Below are positions 4,604-52,947 of a DNA stretch of 64,000 bases, piece after piece. The notes beneath the pieces were generated by a model. It was not told where the DNA came from, ran no database searches, and saw only the letters and a program-made list of their open reading frames with translations. Both the position numbers and the translations under genes were made by a program. Positions within the stretch are counted from its first letter, which is position 1; each line of letters starts with the position of its first letter. The stretch is from Candidatus Poribacteria bacterium (lineage in GTDB: Bacteria > Poribacteria > WGA-4E > WGA-3G): NCBI GenBank assembly GCA_964291315.2, contig OZ219753.1, positions 96,001 to 160,000 on the forward strand. Reading direction: 5' to 3'.

Positions 4604-5503
4604 ATGGTGAAGACCTATAGAACACTTGCCCAAGCAGATGTTGATCACTTTGTTGAGAGAGGACATGTTGTCTTGAAAGGCTGCTTCTCGCGCGAGCTGG
4701 CAGAAGAGTGGCGATCATTCGCTTTTGAGCGCTTGGGTTACGATCCAGACGATCCTACGACTTGGGAGCAACCGCGTGTTCACCTACCTTCTATGAACAG
4801 GGTGGTGATTGCAGATGTTGCGCCGAGGGCATGGGCGGCTATCTGTGATCTGCTGGGTGGGGAAGACAGGATTGTCAATCCTTGGAGCGACGGGAAACCG
4901 GGCTGGAGCGACGGCTTTATTATCAATTTTGCATTGGGTGCAGAGACAGCGTGGCAACCGCCTTCGCCAGAAGTAGGCGGTTGGCATAAAGATGGCGATT
5001 TTTTTCGCCACTTTCTGGATAGTCCGGAACAGGGGCTGCTTACGATTGTCGTCTGGTCGGATATCCATCCGAAAAGCGGTGGAACGTTCGTCGCTTGTGA
5101 TTCGGTCCAGCATGTTGCGCAGCGGTTGTATGAACACCCGGAGGGGTTATTACCGGGCGATTTCGGTGGACTCATCGAAAAATGTAAAGATTTTGTAGAA
5201 ATTACAGGCGAGGCAGGAGATGTTGTGTTGCTGCACCCGTTCGTCTTGCATGCAGCTTCACAGAATCCCTCTGGCCGTGCGCGTTTCATAACGAATCCGC
5301 CTGTTGCTCTCAGGGAGCCGATGGATTTCAATCGTGAAGATTCAGGTGATTTTTCACCGGTGGAATTGGCGGTTCTGCGCGGGTTGCAGAAGGAGCGTTT
5401 GGCTTTCAAGCCGCTGGCACCGCGTGAACGCCTTGTGCCAGCGCGCATCCAACGCCAGCAGAAGATGCTTGCAGAGCAGAAAGAGCGGCTCGGAATGGCT
5501 TAA
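4604..5503 (+). CDS. Phytanoyl-CoA dioxygenase (PhyH) family Fe(II)/2-oxoglutarate oxygenase
   Basis: N-terminal 'F.E.GHVVL', WHKD (HxD) and distal 'GDVVLLHP..LH' form the facial triad. GAGG RBS. Confidence 0.85.
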   Translation: MVKTYRTLAQADVDHFVERGHVVLKGCFSRELAEEWRSFAFERLGYDPDDPTTWEQPRVHLPSMNRVVIADVAPRAWAAICDLLGGEDRIVNPWSDGKPGWSDGFIINFALGAETAWQPPSPEVGGWHKDGDFFRHFLDSPEQGLLTIVVWSDIHPKSGGTFVACDSVQHVAQRLYEHPEGLLPGDFGGLIEKCKDFVEITGEAGDVVLLHPFVLHAASQNPSGRARFITNPPVALREPMDFNREDSGDFSPVELAVLRGLQKERLAFKPLAPRERLVPARIQRQQKMLAEQKERLGMA

Positions 5504-5640
5504 CAGTTGGGGCGAGGCTTTCTCATCTCGCCCTGTTTCTCCAAAGCGCCACGGCAGTTCACTGCACAGCCACGAAACGTTCTCAACCTCATGCAAATAG
5601 GGTCGGCAATTTGAATGGCTCTGGATTAGAAATAAAGATC

Positions 5641-5669
5641 TTGACATACTTAACAGTTTAAGATATAAT
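5641..5669 (+). promoter_or_regulatory. Consensus sigma70 promoter (copy 1 of shared element)
   Basis: TTGACA (5641-5646), 17 nt spacer, TATAAT (5664-5669). Confidence 0.9.
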
Positions 5670-5675
5670 TAAAAT

Positions 5676-6076
5676 CAAAAGTATGGGAAAAGACAATCCG
5701 AGGGTAACACCGATGGGTTCTGTTAAGTCTATCAAGGTTAATCAATGAAATGCATGAAAGATTTGTACACCAACATCACATCCGAAACGGTGGCAGTATT
5801 TAGCCCACTAATCCTGCGCAGCGGTTTCCGTATCCCGTCGGTGCTGCTGTCCAGTTGCTTTTTAGCAACTTACCCCCCCCCTCTACTTCACACACAGTAA
5901 GTATTTATTCCACCTATCCCAAAATACGTACAGGTTCCGTCGAGCTACCCACTTTGCGCATGTTTGCCGGCTTTTGCAACAGCACATCGAGCCCCTCCTG
6001 AAGCGCGTCATGTGGGGGAGGATTGATGGAATGAAACTCGATCCCATACTAAAAGAAGCAGGATCCCTCTTTTTTT
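5676..6076 (+). promoter_or_regulatory. Putative structured 5' leader with uORF and C9 tract
   Basis: Stem AATCC/GGGTT at about 5695-5719. uORF 5754-5900. C9 at 5873-5881. Long-range complement AGTATGGGA (5680-5688) / TCCCATACT (6042-6050). T7 tract at 6070-6076. Homologous to the element at 52947(-). Confidence 0.5.
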
Positions 6077-6160
6077 ATACGTTTCATATTGCTGTTTCGT
6101 CTTGACACATTTTAGGCGGCTTTCGGCACTGCTATTTAACCTCATCACAAGGAGATTAGA

Positions 6161-6883
6161 ATGAATCCATACACCCATTTAATAAAGTTAACAAACATCG
6201 CAGTGTTAGCTACAATACCGCTGCTCTTCGGGTGCGCCAACTTAACGGAAACCCTCTCCGCAAGTGGTTCTAACCACTTCCGCAAGACACGATGGGGGTA
6301 CACCCAAGAGATGGTCCTCGTTGCAGAGCAAGGCAAACGCTTGTTTCTCAGAAAAGGCAATACGCTCGTTTTCAATCACCGCATTGGCGATGTGCCGCTC
6401 AAGATTGTCTATACGTTCAAGAACAATAGGCTGAGAGCCGCGGGCTATATCACCGATCGACCCGTAAAGGGGGCAGATAAACTCGTAGATCATACCGTTA
6501 AAGAACTCGGGGAACCCTCGAAAAAGCTTGAGGATGAAATGATCTGGCTTGACGATGAAACGCTGGTTTATTTGAACGCTTATACCTCCCAGATAATTGA
6601 CCGAGGGGGGAAATACAAGGCATCGGGAGGTATCTTCAATCTCTTGGAGCCGCCCGAAGAAGAGGAAGAAGAGAAAGAGACCGAAACACTCTGGGACGGC
6701 GTGTGGGCATACATCGATCTAGACTTTTACATAGAGATGCGCGAAGTGGATTTCCCGTTAGATGAGATGTCTCTTTATGAGAAACAGCTGTTTGGTGTGC
6801 TGAAAAGAAGGACAATTAAGACCTATATTACAAATAGTGGGAAACTCTCTATTTCAGGTGAACTCCCTATTTCAGATAGATAG
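6161..6883 (+). CDS. Hypothetical lipoprotein
   Basis: AGGAG RBS, signal peptide with lipobox-like LLFG|C, 'FRKTRWG' motif and an acidic poly-Glu linker. Confidence 0.75.
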   Translation: MNPYTHLIKLTNIAVLATIPLLFGCANLTETLSASGSNHFRKTRWGYTQEMVLVAEQGKRLFLRKGNTLVFNHRIGDVPLKIVYTFKNNRLRAAGYITDRPVKGADKLVDHTVKELGEPSKKLEDEMIWLDDETLVYLNAYTSQIIDRGGKYKASGGIFNLLEPPEEEEEEKETETLWDGVWAYIDLDFYIEMREVDFPLDEMSLYEKQLFGVLKRRTIKTYITNSGKLSISGELPISDR

Positions 6884-7030: not shown

Positions 7031-7092
7031 ACAGGCTATGCTACAAGAAATGCACAGGCTAACAGCCTATGCTACAGACAGGTTATGCTACA
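7031..7092 (-). repeat. Cluster of GTAG-type REP-like elements
   Basis: Three copies of ACAG(G/C)(C/T)TATGCTACA (7031, 7062, 7078). On the minus strand 7052-7075 reads GTAG-CATAGGCT-GTT-AGCCTGTG, a GTAG tetramer plus hairpin. Confidence 0.65.
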
Positions 7093-7157
7093 AAATAACC
7101 TGCTCAATCTTTTTTCAAACTTACGTTCACTACACTTTCCACCAAAGGAGAAACATT

Positions 7158-10100
7158 ATGAAAACAGCGAGAGGAATCTATAGACTCTTTTGCATACTAA
7201 CGATTTTAGGGTTTGTGTTTACAAGTTGGACGACGGCACACGCGCAACAAAACAGTGCTCAAAAAGCGTTCCTCGTCCTTGAACAGAACTGCCTCAATTG
7301 CCATGGAAAACATGGCTCCTTTACCGAAAATCTCATCATTGACGAAGACGGTCCCGCCAGTCTCATTGAAAGCGGTGCCGTTGTGCCCGGGGTCCCGCTC
7401 GTCTCTAAACTCTATACGCGGTTGACTACGAAAAACCTCGCAAAACGGATGCCTCTCGGACAACCGCAACTCGACGAGGCCTCCATCCGCGCGATCGGCG
7501 ATTGGATCTTACAGGGTGCCCCTAATTGGGTGGTCGAGCACGATGTAACCTTCATCAACACAAGCAAGATACTTACGGTGATGCAACAACACCTTCAGAC
7601 GCTCGATCCGTTCGACCGACCTTACGCTCGCTATTTCACGATGACGCACCTCTACAATGCTGCGGAAACGGGGGAAGCACTCAATGCCTACAAAGTTGCC
7701 CTCGCAAAACTGGTCAATAGTCTCTCGTGGGGGTTTGATATACACAACCCGCAACCCGTTGATGCCGCCGAGACGGTGTTCTACATCGACGTGCGTAACT
7801 ACGAATGGGACAAACAAGATGCATGGTCCCAAATTGAAGATGCGTATCCGTACGGCATGGAATTCGAGGGTAAACCTCAATTACAGGCGAAGCTCACGAG
7901 ACTCCGTCGGCTGACGAAAACGCAGTTGCCTTACGTCTACGCCGATTGGTTTCTGGCAACCGCTGTGCTTCCAACGCTTTATCACGACATCCTCGACCTG
8001 CCGGGGACAGACCGGGAATTGGAACGCAAGCTGGACGTAGAAGTTCAGCGTAACCTCCAGACTGCGCCGGGCGTGCGCGTCTGGCGTGCGGGTATGAATG
8101 ACTCGGGTGTCTCCAATCATAACCGCGTTGTGGAGCGCCACACGTCCCGATACGGTGCGTATTGGAAGAGCTACGACTTTGCAGGTAGCACGGGAGCACA
8201 GAACGTTTTCACGCATCCGTTGTCTTTCCAACAAGACGGTGGCGAAGTGGTGTTCAATCTGCCGAACGGTCTGCAGGCGTACTATATCTCGGATGCGACA
8301 GGCAATCGGCTGGATGATGCCCCGACGAACATCGTATCCAATCCAGCAGCGGATGATCCCGTCGTTCGCAACGGTTTATCCTGTTTCGGCTGCCACACAG
8401 AAGGAGTGAAACGGTTTGAAGATGAAGTGCGCGCAGTTGTTAGACAAACTAAGAACCCAGCGTTTGATAAGGCGCAGGCAGTGCGGCTTTATGTGGCGCA
8501 AGCCGTGATGGATCGTCTCTTAGATGAGGACACGGCGCGCTACAAGGCTGCGTTGGAAAAGACGGGCGGCGTTTTCGGCGGCATTGAACCGGTGCATCGC
8601 TTCTACGAGGCGTATCAGGGCGACGTAGATGGTGCATATGCAGCCGCATCGGTCGGTTTGGAGAGGAAGACGTTCCTATCCAAGATCCGTGAGAAGTCTA
8701 GTCTACAACGTCTCGGTTTAACGCCTTTCCTAAATGGTAAGAACGTAAAGCGCGATGTGTGGACCTCACGGTTTCCAACTGTGGTTTCAGCGTTGCATTC
8801 ACCAGAGCGAGAACCTGAACCAGTTGATCCTGATCCGGTACGACCCAATCCGGTCGCTGGTGACGGAGTCTACATTCCGGACGCGAACCTCCGGACAGCG
8901 ATTGTGGAAGCCCTCCGTCTAGCGCCAAACGAGTCAATTACTGTGGAAGCTATGAAACGTTTGACGCATTTGGTCGCCGATCGTAAAGGCATCCGTGACC
9001 TAACGGGGCTAGAGCAGGCGATAAACTTGGAGCGGATAGAGCTCCGTCACAACGCCGTCTCCGACTTGACCCCGCTGGCTGAATTGCGCAACTTGAACAA
9101 CATTAAATTGCGGGACAATGCCATCACCGATGTATCGCCTCTTTCGAACCTGATCAATGTAGATTGGATGGGGCTTGAGGAGAATGACATCTCCGATGTG
9201 TCGCCGCTAAGCGGACTCGTCAAATTGAACGGGATAGGCATTTCAGGAAACCCCGTCACGGACGTGTCATCTCTCGCCGGTTTAACCAGCTTAGAAGGGA
9301 TAGATGCATGGAACACGCGTATCTCGGATTTTTCCGCGTTAGCCAAGTTACCGAGGCTGAGCTGGATAGAAATGGGAAACGAAGCCTCTATCTCCGCTGT
9401 TCCCTCTCTAACGGGTTTAAAAGCACTGAAACGGCTTATACTTAACAACTGCAGTATCAGGGATGTGTCTGGGTTGGCGGGACTCCCGCGACTTGAATGG
9501 TTGGAACTCGTTAATAACGCAATCACAGATATTTCTGCGTTGCGCTCTCTAACCAGTTTGCGGACATTGAATCTGGATGCGAACGCCATATCAGATGTTT
9601 CGCCCCTCGCAGGATTAACGAACTTAGAGGTGTTGTACCTTGAGAACAACGTCATTTCAGATGTTTCGCCCCTCGCAGGATTAACAAAGTTGCAACGACT
9701 TAGATTGCAGTCCAATCCCAATCTCAGGGGGTTGTCTGCCTTGGCAAAACTCACGCGGCTCGAATGGCTAGACTTGGTGAATACCGACATACAAGATATT
9801 TCTGCGTTGCGCTCTCTAACCGGTTTGCAAACATTGCTCCTGCAAGCGAATGCCATATCAGATGTTTCGCCCCTCGCAGGATTAACCGGTTTAAAGGCGT
9901 TGTACCTTGAAGAAAACGATATATCAGATGTTTCGCCCCTTGCGGGGCTAAAAAACTTGGAGCAACTTGACTTGCGGGACAACGATATATCAGATGTTTC
10001 GCCTCTTGCAGGATTAACAAACTTGAAGCGACTTGACTTGCGGAAAAACGATATAGAAGACTTTTCGCCTTTAGACGCACTCCGGTCTCAAACTTTTATC

Positions 10101-11009
10101 CAGATGCTACACACCTCTGTGGAGGGCTTGCCACCTATGACAGGGCCATGGCTCTGGATGATCGTCCCCACGCTCGATGCTTGGGGCAGCGATGCGGCAC
10201 ATTCCGGCAAGGATTACCTTGCAGCGGCCAGCGGTGGAAAAGTAACGGAGCTCAAAATCGCCAATAACGGCGCAACGGAAGGGAGCCCGGTCGGAGATAA
10301 GGTCTGGACAGTAGGCGAATTATCCCCCACCGGCGGTGACAATCTCAACGAGATGGCGAACGCCACCGGCTTGGGCTCCGGCCGTATAGACACTCACGTC
10401 GCCTACGGTTCGCTCACCTTGAAATCACCGAGAGTACAAAAGACGACCATGCTCGTCGGCAGCGACGATTCCGTGAAAGTCTGGCTCAACGGGACGCTCG
10501 TTCACAACCATGCTGTGATCCGAGGAGCGGATGATTACCAAGAACAGTTCTCCGTTACGTTGAGACAGGGCTACAACATTTTATTGGTTGCTGTCTACGA
10601 AGCTCATGGAGGATGGAGCGGGTTTTTCGGGTTCGCCCGTGGCACCGACTATGAGGTGATTCCCCCCGGCACTGTGAGGGTTGCGGGTAATGGCCCCATT
10701 CGCCCTGTCTTGCCTGAAGAGACAGTCCTCCTCCACAACTACCCGAACCCGTTCAATCCGGAGACGTGGATACCGTATCAACTTTCGGAAGCTGCGGAGG
10801 TGACGGTGCGTATCTACGCAGCCAACGGGGCGTTGGTGCGGACGTTGGATGTTGGGCATCAACCCGCAGGTCGCTACAACACCCGGACTCGTGCTGTGCA
10901 TTGGGATGGCAAAAATGAGGTGGGTGAGTCTGTTGCGAGCGGGATCTATTTCTATACGTTCACCGCACGCAACTTCACGGCTACACGGAAGATGCTCATC
11001 CGGAAATAG
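7158..11009 (+). CDS. Secreted c-type cytochrome / leucine-rich-repeat protein with C-terminal T9SS-A/FlgD-like domain
   Basis: AGGAG RBS and ATG 7158. Signal peptide ending ...AHA|QQ. Two CxxCH motifs (CLNCH, CFGCH). Roughly 17 internalin-like 22-aa LRRs (L..L.L..N.ISDVSPLAGL). Beta-sandwich 'GSDD.VKVWLNG'. C-terminal 'NYPNPFNPETWIPYQL...WDGKN...ATRKMLIRK'. Confidence 0.9.
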   Translation: MKTARGIYRLFCILTILGFVFTSWTTAHAQQNSAQKAFLVLEQNCLNCHGKHGSFTENLIIDEDGPASLIESGAVVPGVPLVSKLYTRLTTKNLAKRMPLGQPQLDEASIRAIGDWILQGAPNWVVEHDVTFINTSKILTVMQQHLQTLDPFDRPYARYFTMTHLYNAAETGEALNAYKVALAKLVNSLSWGFDIHNPQPVDAAETVFYIDVRNYEWDKQDAWSQIEDAYPYGMEFEGKPQLQAKLTRLRRLTKTQLPYVYADWFLATAVLPTLYHDILDLPGTDRELERKLDVEVQRNLQTAPGVRVWRAGMNDSGVSNHNRVVERHTSRYGAYWKSYDFAGSTGAQNVFTHPLSFQQDGGEVVFNLPNGLQAYYISDATGNRLDDAPTNIVSNPAADDPVVRNGLSCFGCHTEGVKRFEDEVRAVVRQTKNPAFDKAQAVRLYVAQAVMDRLLDEDTARYKAALEKTGGVFGGIEPVHRFYEAYQGDVDGAYAAASVGLERKTFLSKIREKSSLQRLGLTPFLNGKNVKRDVWTSRFPTVVSALHSPEREPEPVDPDPVRPNPVAGDGVYIPDANLRTAIVEALRLAPNESITVEAMKRLTHLVADRKGIRDLTGLEQAINLERIELRHNAVSDLTPLAELRNLNNIKLRDNAITDVSPLSNLINVDWMGLEENDISDVSPLSGLVKLNGIGISGNPVTDVSSLAGLTSLEGIDAWNTRISDFSALAKLPRLSWIEMGNEASISAVPSLTGLKALKRLILNNCSIRDVSGLAGLPRLEWLELVNNAITDISALRSLTSLRTLNLDANAISDVSPLAGLTNLEVLYLENNVISDVSPLAGLTKLQRLRLQSNPNLRGLSALAKLTRLEWLDLVNTDIQDISALRSLTGLQTLLLQANAISDVSPLAGLTGLKALYLEENDISDVSPLAGLKNLEQLDLRDNDISDVSPLAGLTNLKRLDLRKNDIEDFSPLDALRSQTFIQMLHTSVEGLPPMTGPWLWMIVPTLDAWGSDAAHSGKDYLAAASGGKVTELKIANNGATEGSPVGDKVWTVGELSPTGGDNLNEMANATGLGSGRIDTHVAYGSLTLKSPRVQKTTMLVGSDDSVKVWLNGTLVHNHAVIRGADDYQEQFSVTLRQGYNILLVAVYEAHGGWSGFFGFARGTDYEVIPPGTVRVAGNGPIRPVLPEETVLLHNYPNPFNPETWIPYQLSEAAEVTVRIYAANGALVRTLDVGHQPAGRYNTRTRAVHWDGKNEVGESVASGIYFYTFTARNFTATRKMLIRK

Positions 11010-49780: not shown

Positions 49781-52558
49781 CTATTTGTCAGACGATTTCA
49801 GCTCACCCCAGCGCGTTGTGAGCTTACCGCTTGCAGAGACATCCCCACGCAGATGCGTTGTCCGTAGCGTCGTGCGCACCCCGTCCATAGAGACGTCTTC
49901 TATCTGATAGTAATACACCACATTCGGTTTCGCAGCGGTATCTGTGTAGGTATAGACGTGCTTCTCAGAGGTCGTGCCGTGTCCGGCAATCAGACCCTTG
50001 GTGTTGATAACCGCAAACTCGCCGGTCTTGCTCTCACTGCGTAGGATATTGAACCCTGCGTTGTTGAGTTCGGACTGCGTTACCCACGTAATCTCAACGT
50101 GTCCTGTCGAGGCGTTGCGAACAGGACGGAAACTTGAGAGCGAGACGGGCAGCGGACTACCGAGACGGTAACCGGGGGTGCCGATATCGCTCCGATGCCC
50201 GTAGAAGGCAAAAGAGGCAAGGGTAAGGTCAGACTTCCGCCAAGAGGCTTTCATCAGCCCGTCATCCGCATCGTTCGGTCCAGAACCTGCCGCCATGTCG
50301 TTGAAGACACCGCCATAGGTCCGCACAATAGAGGTACGCACCTCACCGCGTTCGGGCAGATCCCACGATTTCGTGGTCATAGCGCCGTCTATCTTAAGGT
50401 TGCCGGCTGTGTCCATAACCATCGGATCGCCTCCGTTGACCTTTGCACGCAGCTCCAGATAGAAGCTCTCCGCACTCAGCAGCCGGCGACCGCTTGTGGT
50501 CAATCCGAGATCGCTGCGGTGCTTCTCCAACAGGTTGTATACGTAGTTCGGTGGCACATCGTTTGCACCGCTGCTCGAGACCAGCAGCAACGTCTGATTG
50601 GGTGGAATATACGTCTCTGCATCAAACGTGAACTCGGTATCCACATACGTCTCTTGGTCTGTCGCCTTGTTTCGGATCTCTAACTCCCAGCCTGCGAGGT
50701 TCACCGTCTCTGTCATAGAGCTGTTGTAGAGCTCTATCCACTGCATCAAGTTCCAGCGTGGCCCCGCATCGTACATAACTTCACTGATCGTCACTTTTCC
50801 ATCGAAGGTGTAGTCTCCATTGGAGACCTCGTTGACTGCCATGTTCGGATACCCGGGCGTGCCAGGGGAGCTCGTTGTATCAATATCTTTATCTTTGCCG
50901 CGGTCGTAACCAGCGCCCATGAATCCGAACGACTTCCAATCGTCTTTGTGAACACGGTTCTCACGAGACTTTGCACCATACATGCCTTGTGAATTGATCA
51001 TGACATCCCGACCGAACGACATGCTCCGAGAGGCGAAGGTGTTCATACCACCGAAGTCGTTATCATCAACGTCTCCTGGCTTTGCCCACGCAACAAACGG
51101 CCAGACATCTGTATTGAACTTCCTATCCTCCATGCGCTTGAAGAACCCGTTGCCGGCGTAGTCTTTGATGTTTGTCGGCTTGCCGACGTCATCGGCATGA
51201 TTCCGCGTGCGCAGCAGGATCAGGAACTTGCCTTCAGCGGGAAGTTTTAGGTCTTTCGCAACCACATACTTGTGTGAGGTGCCTGTTTTGACATCCGTTT
51301 TGTCCAAGATGTCCTGAAGGTTTGTGCCCCCAGCGAGCTTAACGCTTTTCCCAGGGTCCCGGTTATAGACCACAAGATACTCGCCGGGTTTCATTCTGTA
51401 TTTCGGCAGCACGGCGAGGCTGGTGTCCGTGAAGTTGGCATCGCCCGACTCATGATAGCCGCTGCCGTCGTCCTTCATCTTGCCCATGACGAGGCTGAGC
51501 TCATAGTTCTCTATATTCACGGCGGGATCCGATGCATCATTGCTGTTATAGAAGAGCTCTATCCAATCCAAGTTTGCACTTGACGTATCGTTGCGCACCT
51601 CGTTGATGATAATGCCGGTATCGGAGATAGCCGCGGGGTTCTTATTAAACTTCACTACATCCGCACCGCCGAATGGCACGTGAACGCTTCCTGGGGAGCC
51701 GACATAATTGCCTGTCATGTTGATCCGGCCTTCAGAAGCCGCCCAGGAGCCGGGTTCGCTGCCGTCGCCGAGTCCATCTAGTTTACCATCTTTGAGTGCA
51801 TACGCTTTCCCTGTGGTGTCGAGATTGATCTTGCGATACATAGAGACCATATCCATGGGAGGAGCGCCGGTAGCTGTGTTGCCATCTGTATCACCATTGC
51901 TACCTTTCAGCTGCCAAAGCCGGTCAAACTGATCGAACGTTGTTACAACATCCAAAGCGACTGTCTTGCGATCTCCATCTGTATATATCTCACCCGGAGC
52001 AGGTAGGGCATCATGATTCGTGTTACTGCGCCAACGGATCACATCGTCTTTTTTCAGCACGCCTTGGCAGTAGAATTCAATCCACTGCGGATTCTTATCT
52101 GTACGAGCTCTTGAAGGGTTATCTCTCCCCCACATCACTTCGGTGACAACGAGATGGTGCTTGTACTTCAGCGCCTCCGCCGCTGTCAGATCAGGTTTCA
52201 ACGTATACGCCGCATCGGCTACATCAACCTCAGCCTGTGTTGGAATTCGCAATCCGAGGGCAAACCCGCCTGTCCGGAGCAGATCCCGTAGGTCAGGCCA
52301 CAACTGGCTATAATCGGTATCCTTATTATTAACTTGACCATACACTTTCCCACTTGCTGCGGGCAAGATGCCGTTAATAATTTCAGCATCTGAACCTGTT
52401 GTATCCTTAGCTTTAGCCATAATGAAGAACTTTTTGGCTTCATTGAAGTAAAGTTGGGTGCCTCCAGTCACAACGGTAAGCTGCGCGGAGGCCTGGGTTG
52501 TTGCGAAGAGACACAGAAGTCCCAATATTACCAAAAGTCTCATTTTATTCCATAACAT
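49781..52558 (-). CDS. Secreted lamin-tail-domain (LTD) repeat protein
   Basis: Signal peptide and three LTD-like units ('VVTEVMW...QWIEFY', 'IINEV...DWIELF', 'ISEVMY...QWIELYN'), each ending in G(S/T)PG. Also 'PLPVSLSSF' and C-terminal 'GKLTTRWGELK'. AAGGAG RBS. Confidence 0.85.
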   Translation of the reverse strand: MLWNKMRLLVILGLLCLFATTQASAQLTVVTGGTQLYFNEAKKFFIMAKAKDTTGSDAEIINGILPAASGKVYGQVNNKDTDYSQLWPDLRDLLRTGGFALGLRIPTQAEVDVADAAYTLKPDLTAAEALKYKHHLVVTEVMWGRDNPSRARTDKNPQWIEFYCQGVLKKDDVIRWRSNTNHDALPAPGEIYTDGDRKTVALDVVTTFDQFDRLWQLKGSNGDTDGNTATGAPPMDMVSMYRKINLDTTGKAYALKDGKLDGLGDGSEPGSWAASEGRINMTGNYVGSPGSVHVPFGGADVVKFNKNPAAISDTGIIINEVRNDTSSANLDWIELFYNSNDASDPAVNIENYELSLVMGKMKDDGSGYHESGDANFTDTSLAVLPKYRMKPGEYLVVYNRDPGKSVKLAGGTNLQDILDKTDVKTGTSHKYVVAKDLKLPAEGKFLILLRTRNHADDVGKPTNIKDYAGNGFFKRMEDRKFNTDVWPFVAWAKPGDVDDNDFGGMNTFASRSMSFGRDVMINSQGMYGAKSRENRVHKDDWKSFGFMGAGYDRGKDKDIDTTSSPGTPGYPNMAVNEVSNGDYTFDGKVTISEVMYDAGPRWNLMQWIELYNSSMTETVNLAGWELEIRNKATDQETYVDTEFTFDAETYIPPNQTLLLVSSSGANDVPPNYVYNLLEKHRSDLGLTTSGRRLLSAESFYLELRAKVNGGDPMVMDTAGNLKIDGAMTTKSWDLPERGEVRTSIVRTYGGVFNDMAAGSGPNDADDGLMKASWRKSDLTLASFAFYGHRSDIGTPGYRLGSPLPVSLSSFRPVRNASTGHVEITWVTQSELNNAGFNILRSESKTGEFAVINTKGLIAGHGTTSEKHVYTYTDTAAKPNVVYYYQIEDVSMDGVRTTLRTTHLRGDVSASGKLTTRWGELKSSDK

Positions 52559-52918
52559 TATGTTACAATCTCCTTTATTATTGTTAAGTTAAACATAGAT
52601 CAGATAAGAATGGAATCTAGGGATGCCAGGTCCATTCTTTCTTTTCACGAAATCAACTTTATGCTGAGGAACCCCCAGCTCTCGTATGTTAATGTGTCTT
52701 CAGGGCAGCGCCATCTTCTACGGCAGTGCCAAAAGGTTTCTAATATGATATAATAATATATGTAACGCAAAAATCTAACAAAGAATAACAAGATCTTTTG
52801 TTATAGGCGAATGTATAACGCCTTCATCTGTCTGATTGATGTAAGTGGCGATAATAACGTTAACGAAACCCATCAAGTTTACCTCAAGGATTATCTTTTT
52901 ATCACATTTTCTATTTTA

Positions 52919-52947
52919 ATTATATCTTAAACTGTTATACATGTCAA
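52919..52947 (-). promoter_or_regulatory. Consensus sigma70 promoter (copy 2 of shared element)
   Basis: TTGACA (52947-52942), 17 nt, TATAAT (52924-52919). The spacer is nearly identical to that of the promoter at 5641. Confidence 0.9.

Follow-up and report, generated by a model that had tools for sequence, protein, structure and literature searches.

A 21-copy promoter and poly-C leader cassette, mostly before surface-protein genes, of a Candidatus Poribacteria bacterium, a candidate slippage-driven leader-peptide switch

To our knowledge, phase variation has been described almost exclusively in cultured pathogens and commensals, and a switch design in which repeat changes set the length of a leader peptide has experimental proof to date only in one Streptococcus, for its pili. 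The contingency loci of Neisseria, Haemophilus, Campylobacter and Helicobacter, as the portions of the literature available to us describe them, carry poly-G or poly-C in coding regions or between promoter boxes. In the pil1 switch of Streptococcus gallolyticus, according to the accessible part of its description, out-of-frame repeat changes lengthen a leader peptide, and ribosomes cover a premature terminator (Danne 2014, PMC3894217). Two further classes are treated in the accessible part of a review (PMC12360218): attenuation by Rho that depends on an upstream open reading frame (uORF; mgtL/mgtA, mgtP/mgtCBR, corA, toiL/topAI), in which translation of the leader open reading frame (ORF) decides Rho loading downstream, and phase switches read by Rho (fimS, Clostridioides difficile flgB), in which a random change in the DNA can uncover a site for Rho to load. 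Here we describe a stretch of 64 kb (the window, C4:96001-160000) from the 4.4-Mb genome of a Candidatus Poribacteria bacterium, in which two loci, A at 5641(+) and B at 52947(-), share a promoter and the start of a transcribed leader. Positions are counted within the window, and those prefixed C4: are contig positions outside it. Our analysis points to 5641-5771 as the front end of a 21-copy cassette, and we consider it reasonably likely that the whole cassette works as an on/off switch of the pil1 kind, driven by slippage in a leader ORF.

The original prediction had read the two loci as a common module, and the likeness it described was borne out. The quoted letters of both stretches were reproduced as read; both promoters have the form TTGACA-17-TATAAT; and the 25-nucleotide (nt) identity TAACAGTTTAAGATATAATTAAAAT is exact at A and at 52913-52937(-), the string occurring twice in the window, whereas two matches arose in 0 of 100 shuffles. 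Pairwise similarity of A and B extends for about 130 nt, and on the transcript side the likeness amounts to 78% mean column identity over 210 columns. A and B are genuine copies, but of a larger family and not of a pair. A BLAST search of the genome followed by three rounds of nhmmer to convergence yielded 21 full copies at E<1e-8, and the identical 21 were recovered at E<=2.9e-15 by a sequence-only covariance model that had itself been built from the nhmmer copies. The nearest relative of A is not B but the copy at C4:2430534 (83% identity over 162 nt), and the operon behind that copy is paralogous to A's, encoding a TonB_C protein, a lipoprotein and a cytochrome/LRR protein. Similarity within the cassette is not confined to 5641-5771; it stretches 350-650 nt downstream, up to the gene, and peters out at different points between copies.

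A regulatory cassette acting in cis and placed before genes for surface or secreted proteins had been proposed, and the enlarged family agrees with this. All 21 copies point at a downstream gene, with an ORF on the same strand at a distance of 362-929 nt, and the majority of these genes encode surface or secreted proteins. The first gene encodes a lamin-tail-domain protein of 911-961 amino acids (aa) in 11 copies, B included, an FGE-sulfatase-domain protein in two, a Laminin_G_3 (LamG lectin-like) protein in two, a TonB_C protein in one and a Plug-domain TonB-dependent receptor in one; in one copy sspB comes first and is followed by sspC, and in three, among them A with its lipoprotein-like gene, the first gene belongs to no family. 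The genes at A and B are those originally named, a lipoprotein-like gene with an LRR protein and a lamin-tail protein. Judged by their domains, the targets would fit contingency genes.

Behind the promoter, the uORFs that had been predicted to open with MKDLYT... at ATG 5754 and MKALYI... at 52827 are present, A having an additional in-frame ATG ahead of the first of these, and they belong to a conserved open frame. An ATG or GTG stands at one of two start positions in 20 of the 21 copies, and in 17 an open frame of about 40 codons leads into an unbroken tract of C8-C10. Before the tract, these 17 copies hold no stop in frame 0, compared with 48 and 42 summed over the other two frames; the distance from start to tract is near constant, and the peptide alignment is almost gapless. 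The leader ORF is predicted to be translated. The four remaining tracts are interrupted in two copies and affected by deletions in two. In every copy with a tract, at least one class of tract length leads to a stop at 42-56 codons, and the other classes run for 65-188 codons. At A, the C8/C11 frame is the sole one that passes through the hairpin and U-run behind the tract (Table 1). The poly-C tract, the frame-dependent stops and the terminator together are likely the regulatory core, which lies outside 5641-5771 and is absent from B.

In the switch that we favor, gain or loss of C residues in the tract during replication would change the frame of the leader. In a short frame, ribosomes would leave early and transcription would end at the terminator hairpin or through the action of Rho on bare C-rich RNA. 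In a long frame, ribosomes would cover this region, RNA polymerase would read on, and the main start codon would be supplied with ribosomes. With the C9 tract of the assembly, locus A would be in the short frame and hence off, and B, a mosaic copy lacking the tract, would have lost switching. Rho-dependent polarity, either as a substitute for the hairpin or in addition to it, is plausible: the genome carries a Rho gene, seen as a 444-aa open frame with a Rho_RNA_bind match of 96.8 bits, and the RNA is rich in C and poor in G, the C/G ratio being 1.4-3.3 between -80 and +120 relative to the tract end. It is from these two features only that involvement of Rho is suggested, and since terminators in this genome are often weak, Rho may take part.

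Sixty congeneric genomes were searched for related elements, and 12 loci were fetched for close inspection. With the whole leader as DNA query against 40 relatives, only one weak match was found outside this genome, and a covariance model of the 5' module gave weak matches in 8 of the 60 congeners; eight of nine such loci inspected were promoter-like only, and one was a true poly-C leader. On these searches, the exact 5' module appears confined to this genome. The tract accompanied by a CTYYAC..TAAG motif was found in 34 of the 60 congeners, with tracts of C8-C13 and no matches in a reversed control. In all 12 inspected loci, one frame is open for 34-73 codons into the tract and begins with MKN..., resembling the MKD... 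of A, and in the relatives promoter and leader ORF are separated by anything from about 8 to about 90 nt. Five of the loci lie before sspB, one before an orthologue of the TonB_C gene and the rest before secreted proteins. At seven, exactly one tract class ends the leader ORF within -4 to +7 nt of the main start, and at three the long frame is fused in frame to the main ORF. A hairpin with a U-tract (-12 to -25 kcal/mol) follows the tract at 10 of the 12 loci, compared with 8 of 240 shuffled leaders that reach at least that strength (-12). Both short-frame stops lie upstream of the hairpin at 8 of these 10 loci, and the long frame passes through it at all 10.

Evidence that tract length is itself variable is suggestive but not proof. 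In sequencing-run data, which were available as assembled contigs (runs X1-X4, one study), a contig of X2 differs from 5400-6128 by three substitutions and by two letters fewer at 5881, giving C7; a contig of X1 has C9 at the A tract, and that of X3 ends before the tract. Three close lamin-tail paralogues carry C10, C8 and C9. Genome-wide, C runs of 7, 8, 9 and 10 bases number 18, 22, 11 and 1, and G runs of the same lengths 29, 23, 7 and 1; C/G homopolymers are over-represented at 8-9 bases, and there are 65 runs of at least 8. In lamin-tail leaders, a GTT-rich stretch encoding a valine run in the leader peptide was also observed just 5' of the tract (e.g., C4:1157611 and C4:692772), and its length differs between close paralogues in multiples of three bases.

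Several points weigh against a slippage-driven switch. The variation in tract length at A comes down to one 2-nt difference between contigs of two runs from one study, for which an assembly error in the homopolymer is possible. The 12 cross-species loci were chosen via the tract motif, so that the presence of a tract in them is circular, although their open frame and terminator are not, and each main start in the relatives was set at the earliest start codon of the longest ORF. The relatives have much clearer terminators than this genome does. A stricter terminator scan found none in A or B; only 7 of the 21 leaders reach -12 kcal/mol, several of them as composite folds, and 7 have no candidate; and RNAalifold gave no consensus for the hairpin and U-run module of 12 copies, the alignment of which was poor. 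In A and in the majority of lamin-tail copies, the main start lies 30-100 nt past the end of the longest frame, which gives no sign of tight coupling; at A, the tract is 280 nt upstream of the main ATG (6161), and the gene is not fused to the leader in any frame. Comparison of duplex energies revealed no Shine-Dalgarno sequence at either start of the leader ORF, the means being -1.9 and -1.1 kcal/mol at the two leader starts, compared with -1.9 for random positions in the leader and -5.4 for main genes. A codon-position test likewise gave no signal of selection on the peptide, with 36, 31 and 33% of the differences falling on the three positions. Openness and length of the frame appear to be kept, then, and the peptide itself is not conserved by this measure, and an open frame of set length without peptide conservation is expected of a leader ORF in which translation, and not the product, matters. 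Where transcription starts, that the leader ORF is translated and that termination occurs are predictions from sequence.

Set beside the pil1 and pil3 switches as the accessible text of PMC3894217 presents them, the cassette is alike in that the short form stops before the premature terminator hairpin and long forms end within or beyond it, and in that the pil1 target is a surface structure. The features of this kind found here are the leader open frame and the long forms that end within or beyond the terminator. The differences are considerable. The repeat is a C8-C13 homopolymer, compared with about 22 GCAGA units in the portion of the pil1 literature available to us; the host belongs to an uncultured symbiont lineage of Gram-negative type; at least 21 copies per genome stand before unrelated genes, whereas the same portion of the literature gives one or two pilus loci for pil1/pil3; and the long frame of the relatives terminates at the main start codon, which would add translational coupling. 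Furthermore, terminators in this genome are often weak, with Rho a possible participant, and the switch described here is a prediction from sequence. In contingency loci, as far as the sources at hand describe them, G/C runs of at least 8 serve as heritable and reversible frame switches for surface and restriction-modification genes, at many loci per genome, and the cassette would be alike in this. Unlike in those loci, the tract lies outside the main gene and promoter, in a separate leader ORF, and the classical in-frame fusion of contingency genes is absent at A and present at 3 of the 12 related loci. The leader ORFs of the Rho systems sense metabolites or stalling, and their phase switches are invertible DNA, to judge from the accessible part of PMC12360218, where a repeat tract inside a uORF combined with Rho is not described. 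In our literature search, no paper was found that links Poribacteria with phase variation. What is new here is most likely a homopolymer, multi-copy variant of the pil1 mechanism.

The original prediction had placed the regulation elsewhere, in a ligand- or protein-sensing RNA switch at 5676-5744 that, together with an operator in the promoter spacer, would co-regulate the surface genes. The proposed AAUCC/GGGUU helix with its inner stem can indeed be drawn and is present in the minimum-energy fold of A, but its pairing and stability are not above chance. Among the 11 copies with the segment, 72.0% of cells are paired in the helix, compared with 73.7% for column shuffles, the real score is equalled or exceeded in 429 of 500 shuffles, and only one pair is changed on both sides; RNAalifold predicted zero pairs for the consensus of these copies, and no covariation was found across copies of the leader. 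Fold z-scores against dinucleotide shuffles are +0.30 for A and +0.47 for B, with four other copies at -1.42 to +0.51. The segment is absent from 9 of the 21 copies, and one arm is missing in a tenth. Somewhat better supported is the alternative hairpin GATRGG/CCTATC, which is paired in 84.8% of cells, a value reached by 7 of 500 shuffles. That no known riboswitch is involved was upheld, there being no Rfam match at gathering score and only a 15.9-bit chance match at E<=1. As for the operator, the spacer adjoining the -10 box is conserved, but between the family's two clades the spacers differ apart from TTTAAG(A/G) at this place, and the 88 perfect 17-spaced promoters of the genome have a spacer trend of T-A-n-G-G directly before TATAAT. 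Because TTTAAG(A/G) follows this general trend, a shared operator is not indicated. The variable distance between promoter and ORF in the relatives also counts against the proposed RNA switch, and we regard an RNA switch with spacer operator as very improbable; the hairpin region 5695-5733 is probably not the regulatory part. A 21-codon mini-ORF early in the A leader, which ends with ATGA on the 5745 start, was also considered and was dropped, as it is not conserved in other copies.

Other explanations accept the leader ORF or tract but assign them a different role. It is conceivable, if rather unlikely, that a Pro-Pro-Pro tract stalls ribosomes and so senses proline or EF-P supply, setting termination at the hairpin or by Rho (cf. 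Salmonella mgtL and mgtP); the tract encodes two to three prolines in every frame, the Rho gene and C-rich, G-poor RNA noted above would serve such a device equally, and uORF-dependent Rho attenuation is an established class in the accessible part of PMC12360218. Selection for proline alone would, however, permit CCA, CCG and CCT, and the 17 of 21 copies in question, which were found via the 5' module, use only CCC in an unbroken run of 8-10, which counts against stalling. Moreover, tracts range over C8-C13 across species and C8-C10 among close paralogues, each change shifting the frame, and the off frames have conserved stops shortly after the tract. Slippage and proline stalling could also act together. 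Homopolymer runs of at least 9 can cause transcriptional slippage, and the frame layout would serve slippage of RNA polymerase or of the ribosome on the C run equally well, the outcome being a fixed mixture of frames in each cell, and hence a dose and not a heritable state; we think this improbable given that tract lengths differ at the DNA level between runs, paralogues and orthologues. We attach a similarly low probability to there being no switch at all, that is, to a strong promoter and long leader co-duplicated with a surface-protein family, with the open frame and tract as passengers. Eleven of the 21 copies do precede paralogous lamin-tail genes, the exact 5' module has only weak matches in the 60 congeners, and perfect promoters are common in the genome. 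The module nevertheless stands before at least seven unrelated gene types, lamin-tail and LamG genes occur in both clades of the module tree, the absence of in-frame stops is hard to explain without selection, and the layout of tract, stops and terminator is kept at the orthologous sspB and TonB_C loci of other species. Least probable of all is a mobile element, such as a miniature inverted-repeat transposable element (MITE) or the end of an insertion sequence (IS) with an outward-facing promoter. Multiple copies, modules shuffled between loci and a 17-nt inverted repeat (5640-5656 / 5720-5736) would suit it, but every copy faces a gene, no terminal inverted repeats were found, the one inverted repeat present lies inside the element and is about what chance would give, the inspected copies have no transposase next to them, and similarity fades at variable points. 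The cassette does not resemble a MITE or IS end, target-site duplications not having been searched for.

Locus B lacks about 200 nt, comprising the ORF body and the poly-C tract, relative to the two closest leaders (C4:2457901 and C4:852081), and its leader ORF is reduced to a remnant. In the module tree, its 5' module falls on a long branch in the clade of A (split support 96/96), and in its 3' leader the modules are collinear with those of lamin-tail leaders from the other clade. B is most simply explained as a recombinant, mosaic copy. Recombination would explain why a common front end stands before two unrelated genes, and having lost the ORF body and tract, B would no longer switch.

The poly-C leader before sspB-sspC, a DNA phosphorothioation defence system (C4:1812522-1817722), is kept at 5 of the 12 related loci, and this site of the leader is probably ancestral. 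A broader proposal, which we hold at about even chances, is that the portable cassette of promoter, leader ORF and poly-C tract is the general contingency switch of the lineage, ancestral at the sspBC and TonB loci, and was copied and recombined before more than 20 surface-protein operons, giving each cell a random surface combination; it would then be the first case of multi-copy homopolymer leader-peptide attenuation and the first of phase variation in sponge-associated uncultured bacteria. If so, an uncultured symbiont lineage varies its surface through about two dozen independent switches, the switched genes being those for lamin-tail, lectin-like, sulfatase-maturase-type and TonB-dependent proteins together with one DNA-modification defence system. 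This would bear on how symbionts handle host recognition and phages, and promoter, 40-codon ORF, C-run and terminator would constitute a compact, transplantable switch. For annotation, it would mean that the 350-650 nt "intergenic" leaders of these genomes contain a functional small ORF and that the homopolymer length in an assembly carries biological state.

The promoter hexamers are the best conserved columns in the alignment of the 21 copies. Perfect TTGACA-N16-18-TATAAT sites number 123 in the genome compared with about 2 expected, so a perfect promoter alone is unremarkable here, and A and B stand out by their common spacer and transcript. An upstream module of about 60 nt, 5' of the -35 box, is found at A, C4:3083303 and C1:459100 and in part at C4:89108. 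In the cassettes at C4:1409380-1409470 (47 nt apart) and C4:2430534-2430600, a second copy of the promoter lies directly upstream in tandem. The 17-nt inverted repeat of A is complementary at 15 of 17 positions, pairing the -35 and spacer region with the CTGTTAAG..TATCAAG of the leader, and is less marked in other copies. An invertible promoter based on this repeat was considered and rejected, given that its arms are 63 nt apart, that it is weaker elsewhere and that no strand-changing joint was seen in the contigs. The features of both loci are collected in Table 1.

Table 1. Positions of the promoter, leader and gene features at loci A and B, counted within the window.
Feature	Position	Strand	Remarks
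Upstream module (...CATG.AAA.ATA...CAATT.GAATGGCTCTGGAT...)	5581-5637	+	common to A and three other copies
Locus A promoter	-35 TTGACA 5641-5646; 17-nt spacer; -10 TATAAT 5664-5669	+	12/12 consensus
25 nt common to A and B (spacer, -10 box, first transcribed bases)	5651-5675	+	exact string match
Predicted A-rich 5' untranslated stretch of A	5676-5744	+	
Originally proposed helix within this stretch	5695-5719	+	
Alternative small hairpin	5712-5733	+	
Leader ORF of A as assembled (C9)	ATG 5745; in-frame ATG 5754; stop TAA 5898-5900	+	
Poly-C tract of A	5873-5881	+	C9, predicted slippage site
Leader ORF end of A, C9 (as assembled)	5900	+	before hairpins and T-run
Leader ORF end of A, C10 or C7	TGA 5999-6001	+	element coordinate 364; before hairpins and T-run
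Leader ORF end of A, C8 or C11	TGA 6103-6105	+	element coordinate 468; beyond hairpins and T-run
Weak terminator-like hairpins, then 7-T run	6015-6076	+	-11.7 kcal/mol; fold z -0.73
First gene of A	6161-6883	+	240 aa, lipoprotein-type signal, no Pfam or PADLOC family
Second gene of A	7038-11009	+	1323-aa LRR protein; Cytochrome_CBB3 and Por_Secre_tail matches below Pfam cut-offs
Locus B promoter	-35 TTGACA 52947-52942; -10 TATAAT 52924-52919	-	12/12 consensus
Predicted 5' untranslated stretch of B	52828-52912	-	homologous to that of A
Leader ORF remnant of B	52801-52827	-	8 codons (MKALYIRL) and stop
Gene of B	49781-52558	-	925-aa lamin-tail-domain protein, signal peptide; LTD, E 5e-21

In runs X3 and X4, we also noticed a contig of a related strain in which position 5671, the base following the -10 box, is connected by way of 39 different letters to position 6383, which falls within the lipoprotein gene. 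The shorter side of this joint is 38 nt, and the joint is hence weak. In this related strain, the leader and the 5' end of the lipoprotein gene may have been replaced.

A four-copy sub-family of short leaders was observed before genes of the FGE-sulfatase type (C4:772690-772915, 775000-775215, 330095-330310 and 2769830-2770050). These have the same layout, but with only about 70 nt from tract to gene; a small hairpin immediately precedes the ribosome-binding site, and the tract is interrupted in one of the four. Lastly, a palindromic word (CAGACTGACAGTCT...GCTAC type) recurs between genes, at 7040-7080 of the window, at C4:772560-772640 and in the leader at C4:3083303, with 15 exact 14-mers in the genome. 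By score, the copy at 7052-7072 is a terminator-like hairpin on the minus strand, and the runs differ from one another especially often at this place, where a 25-nt deletion and numerous loose ends were seen.

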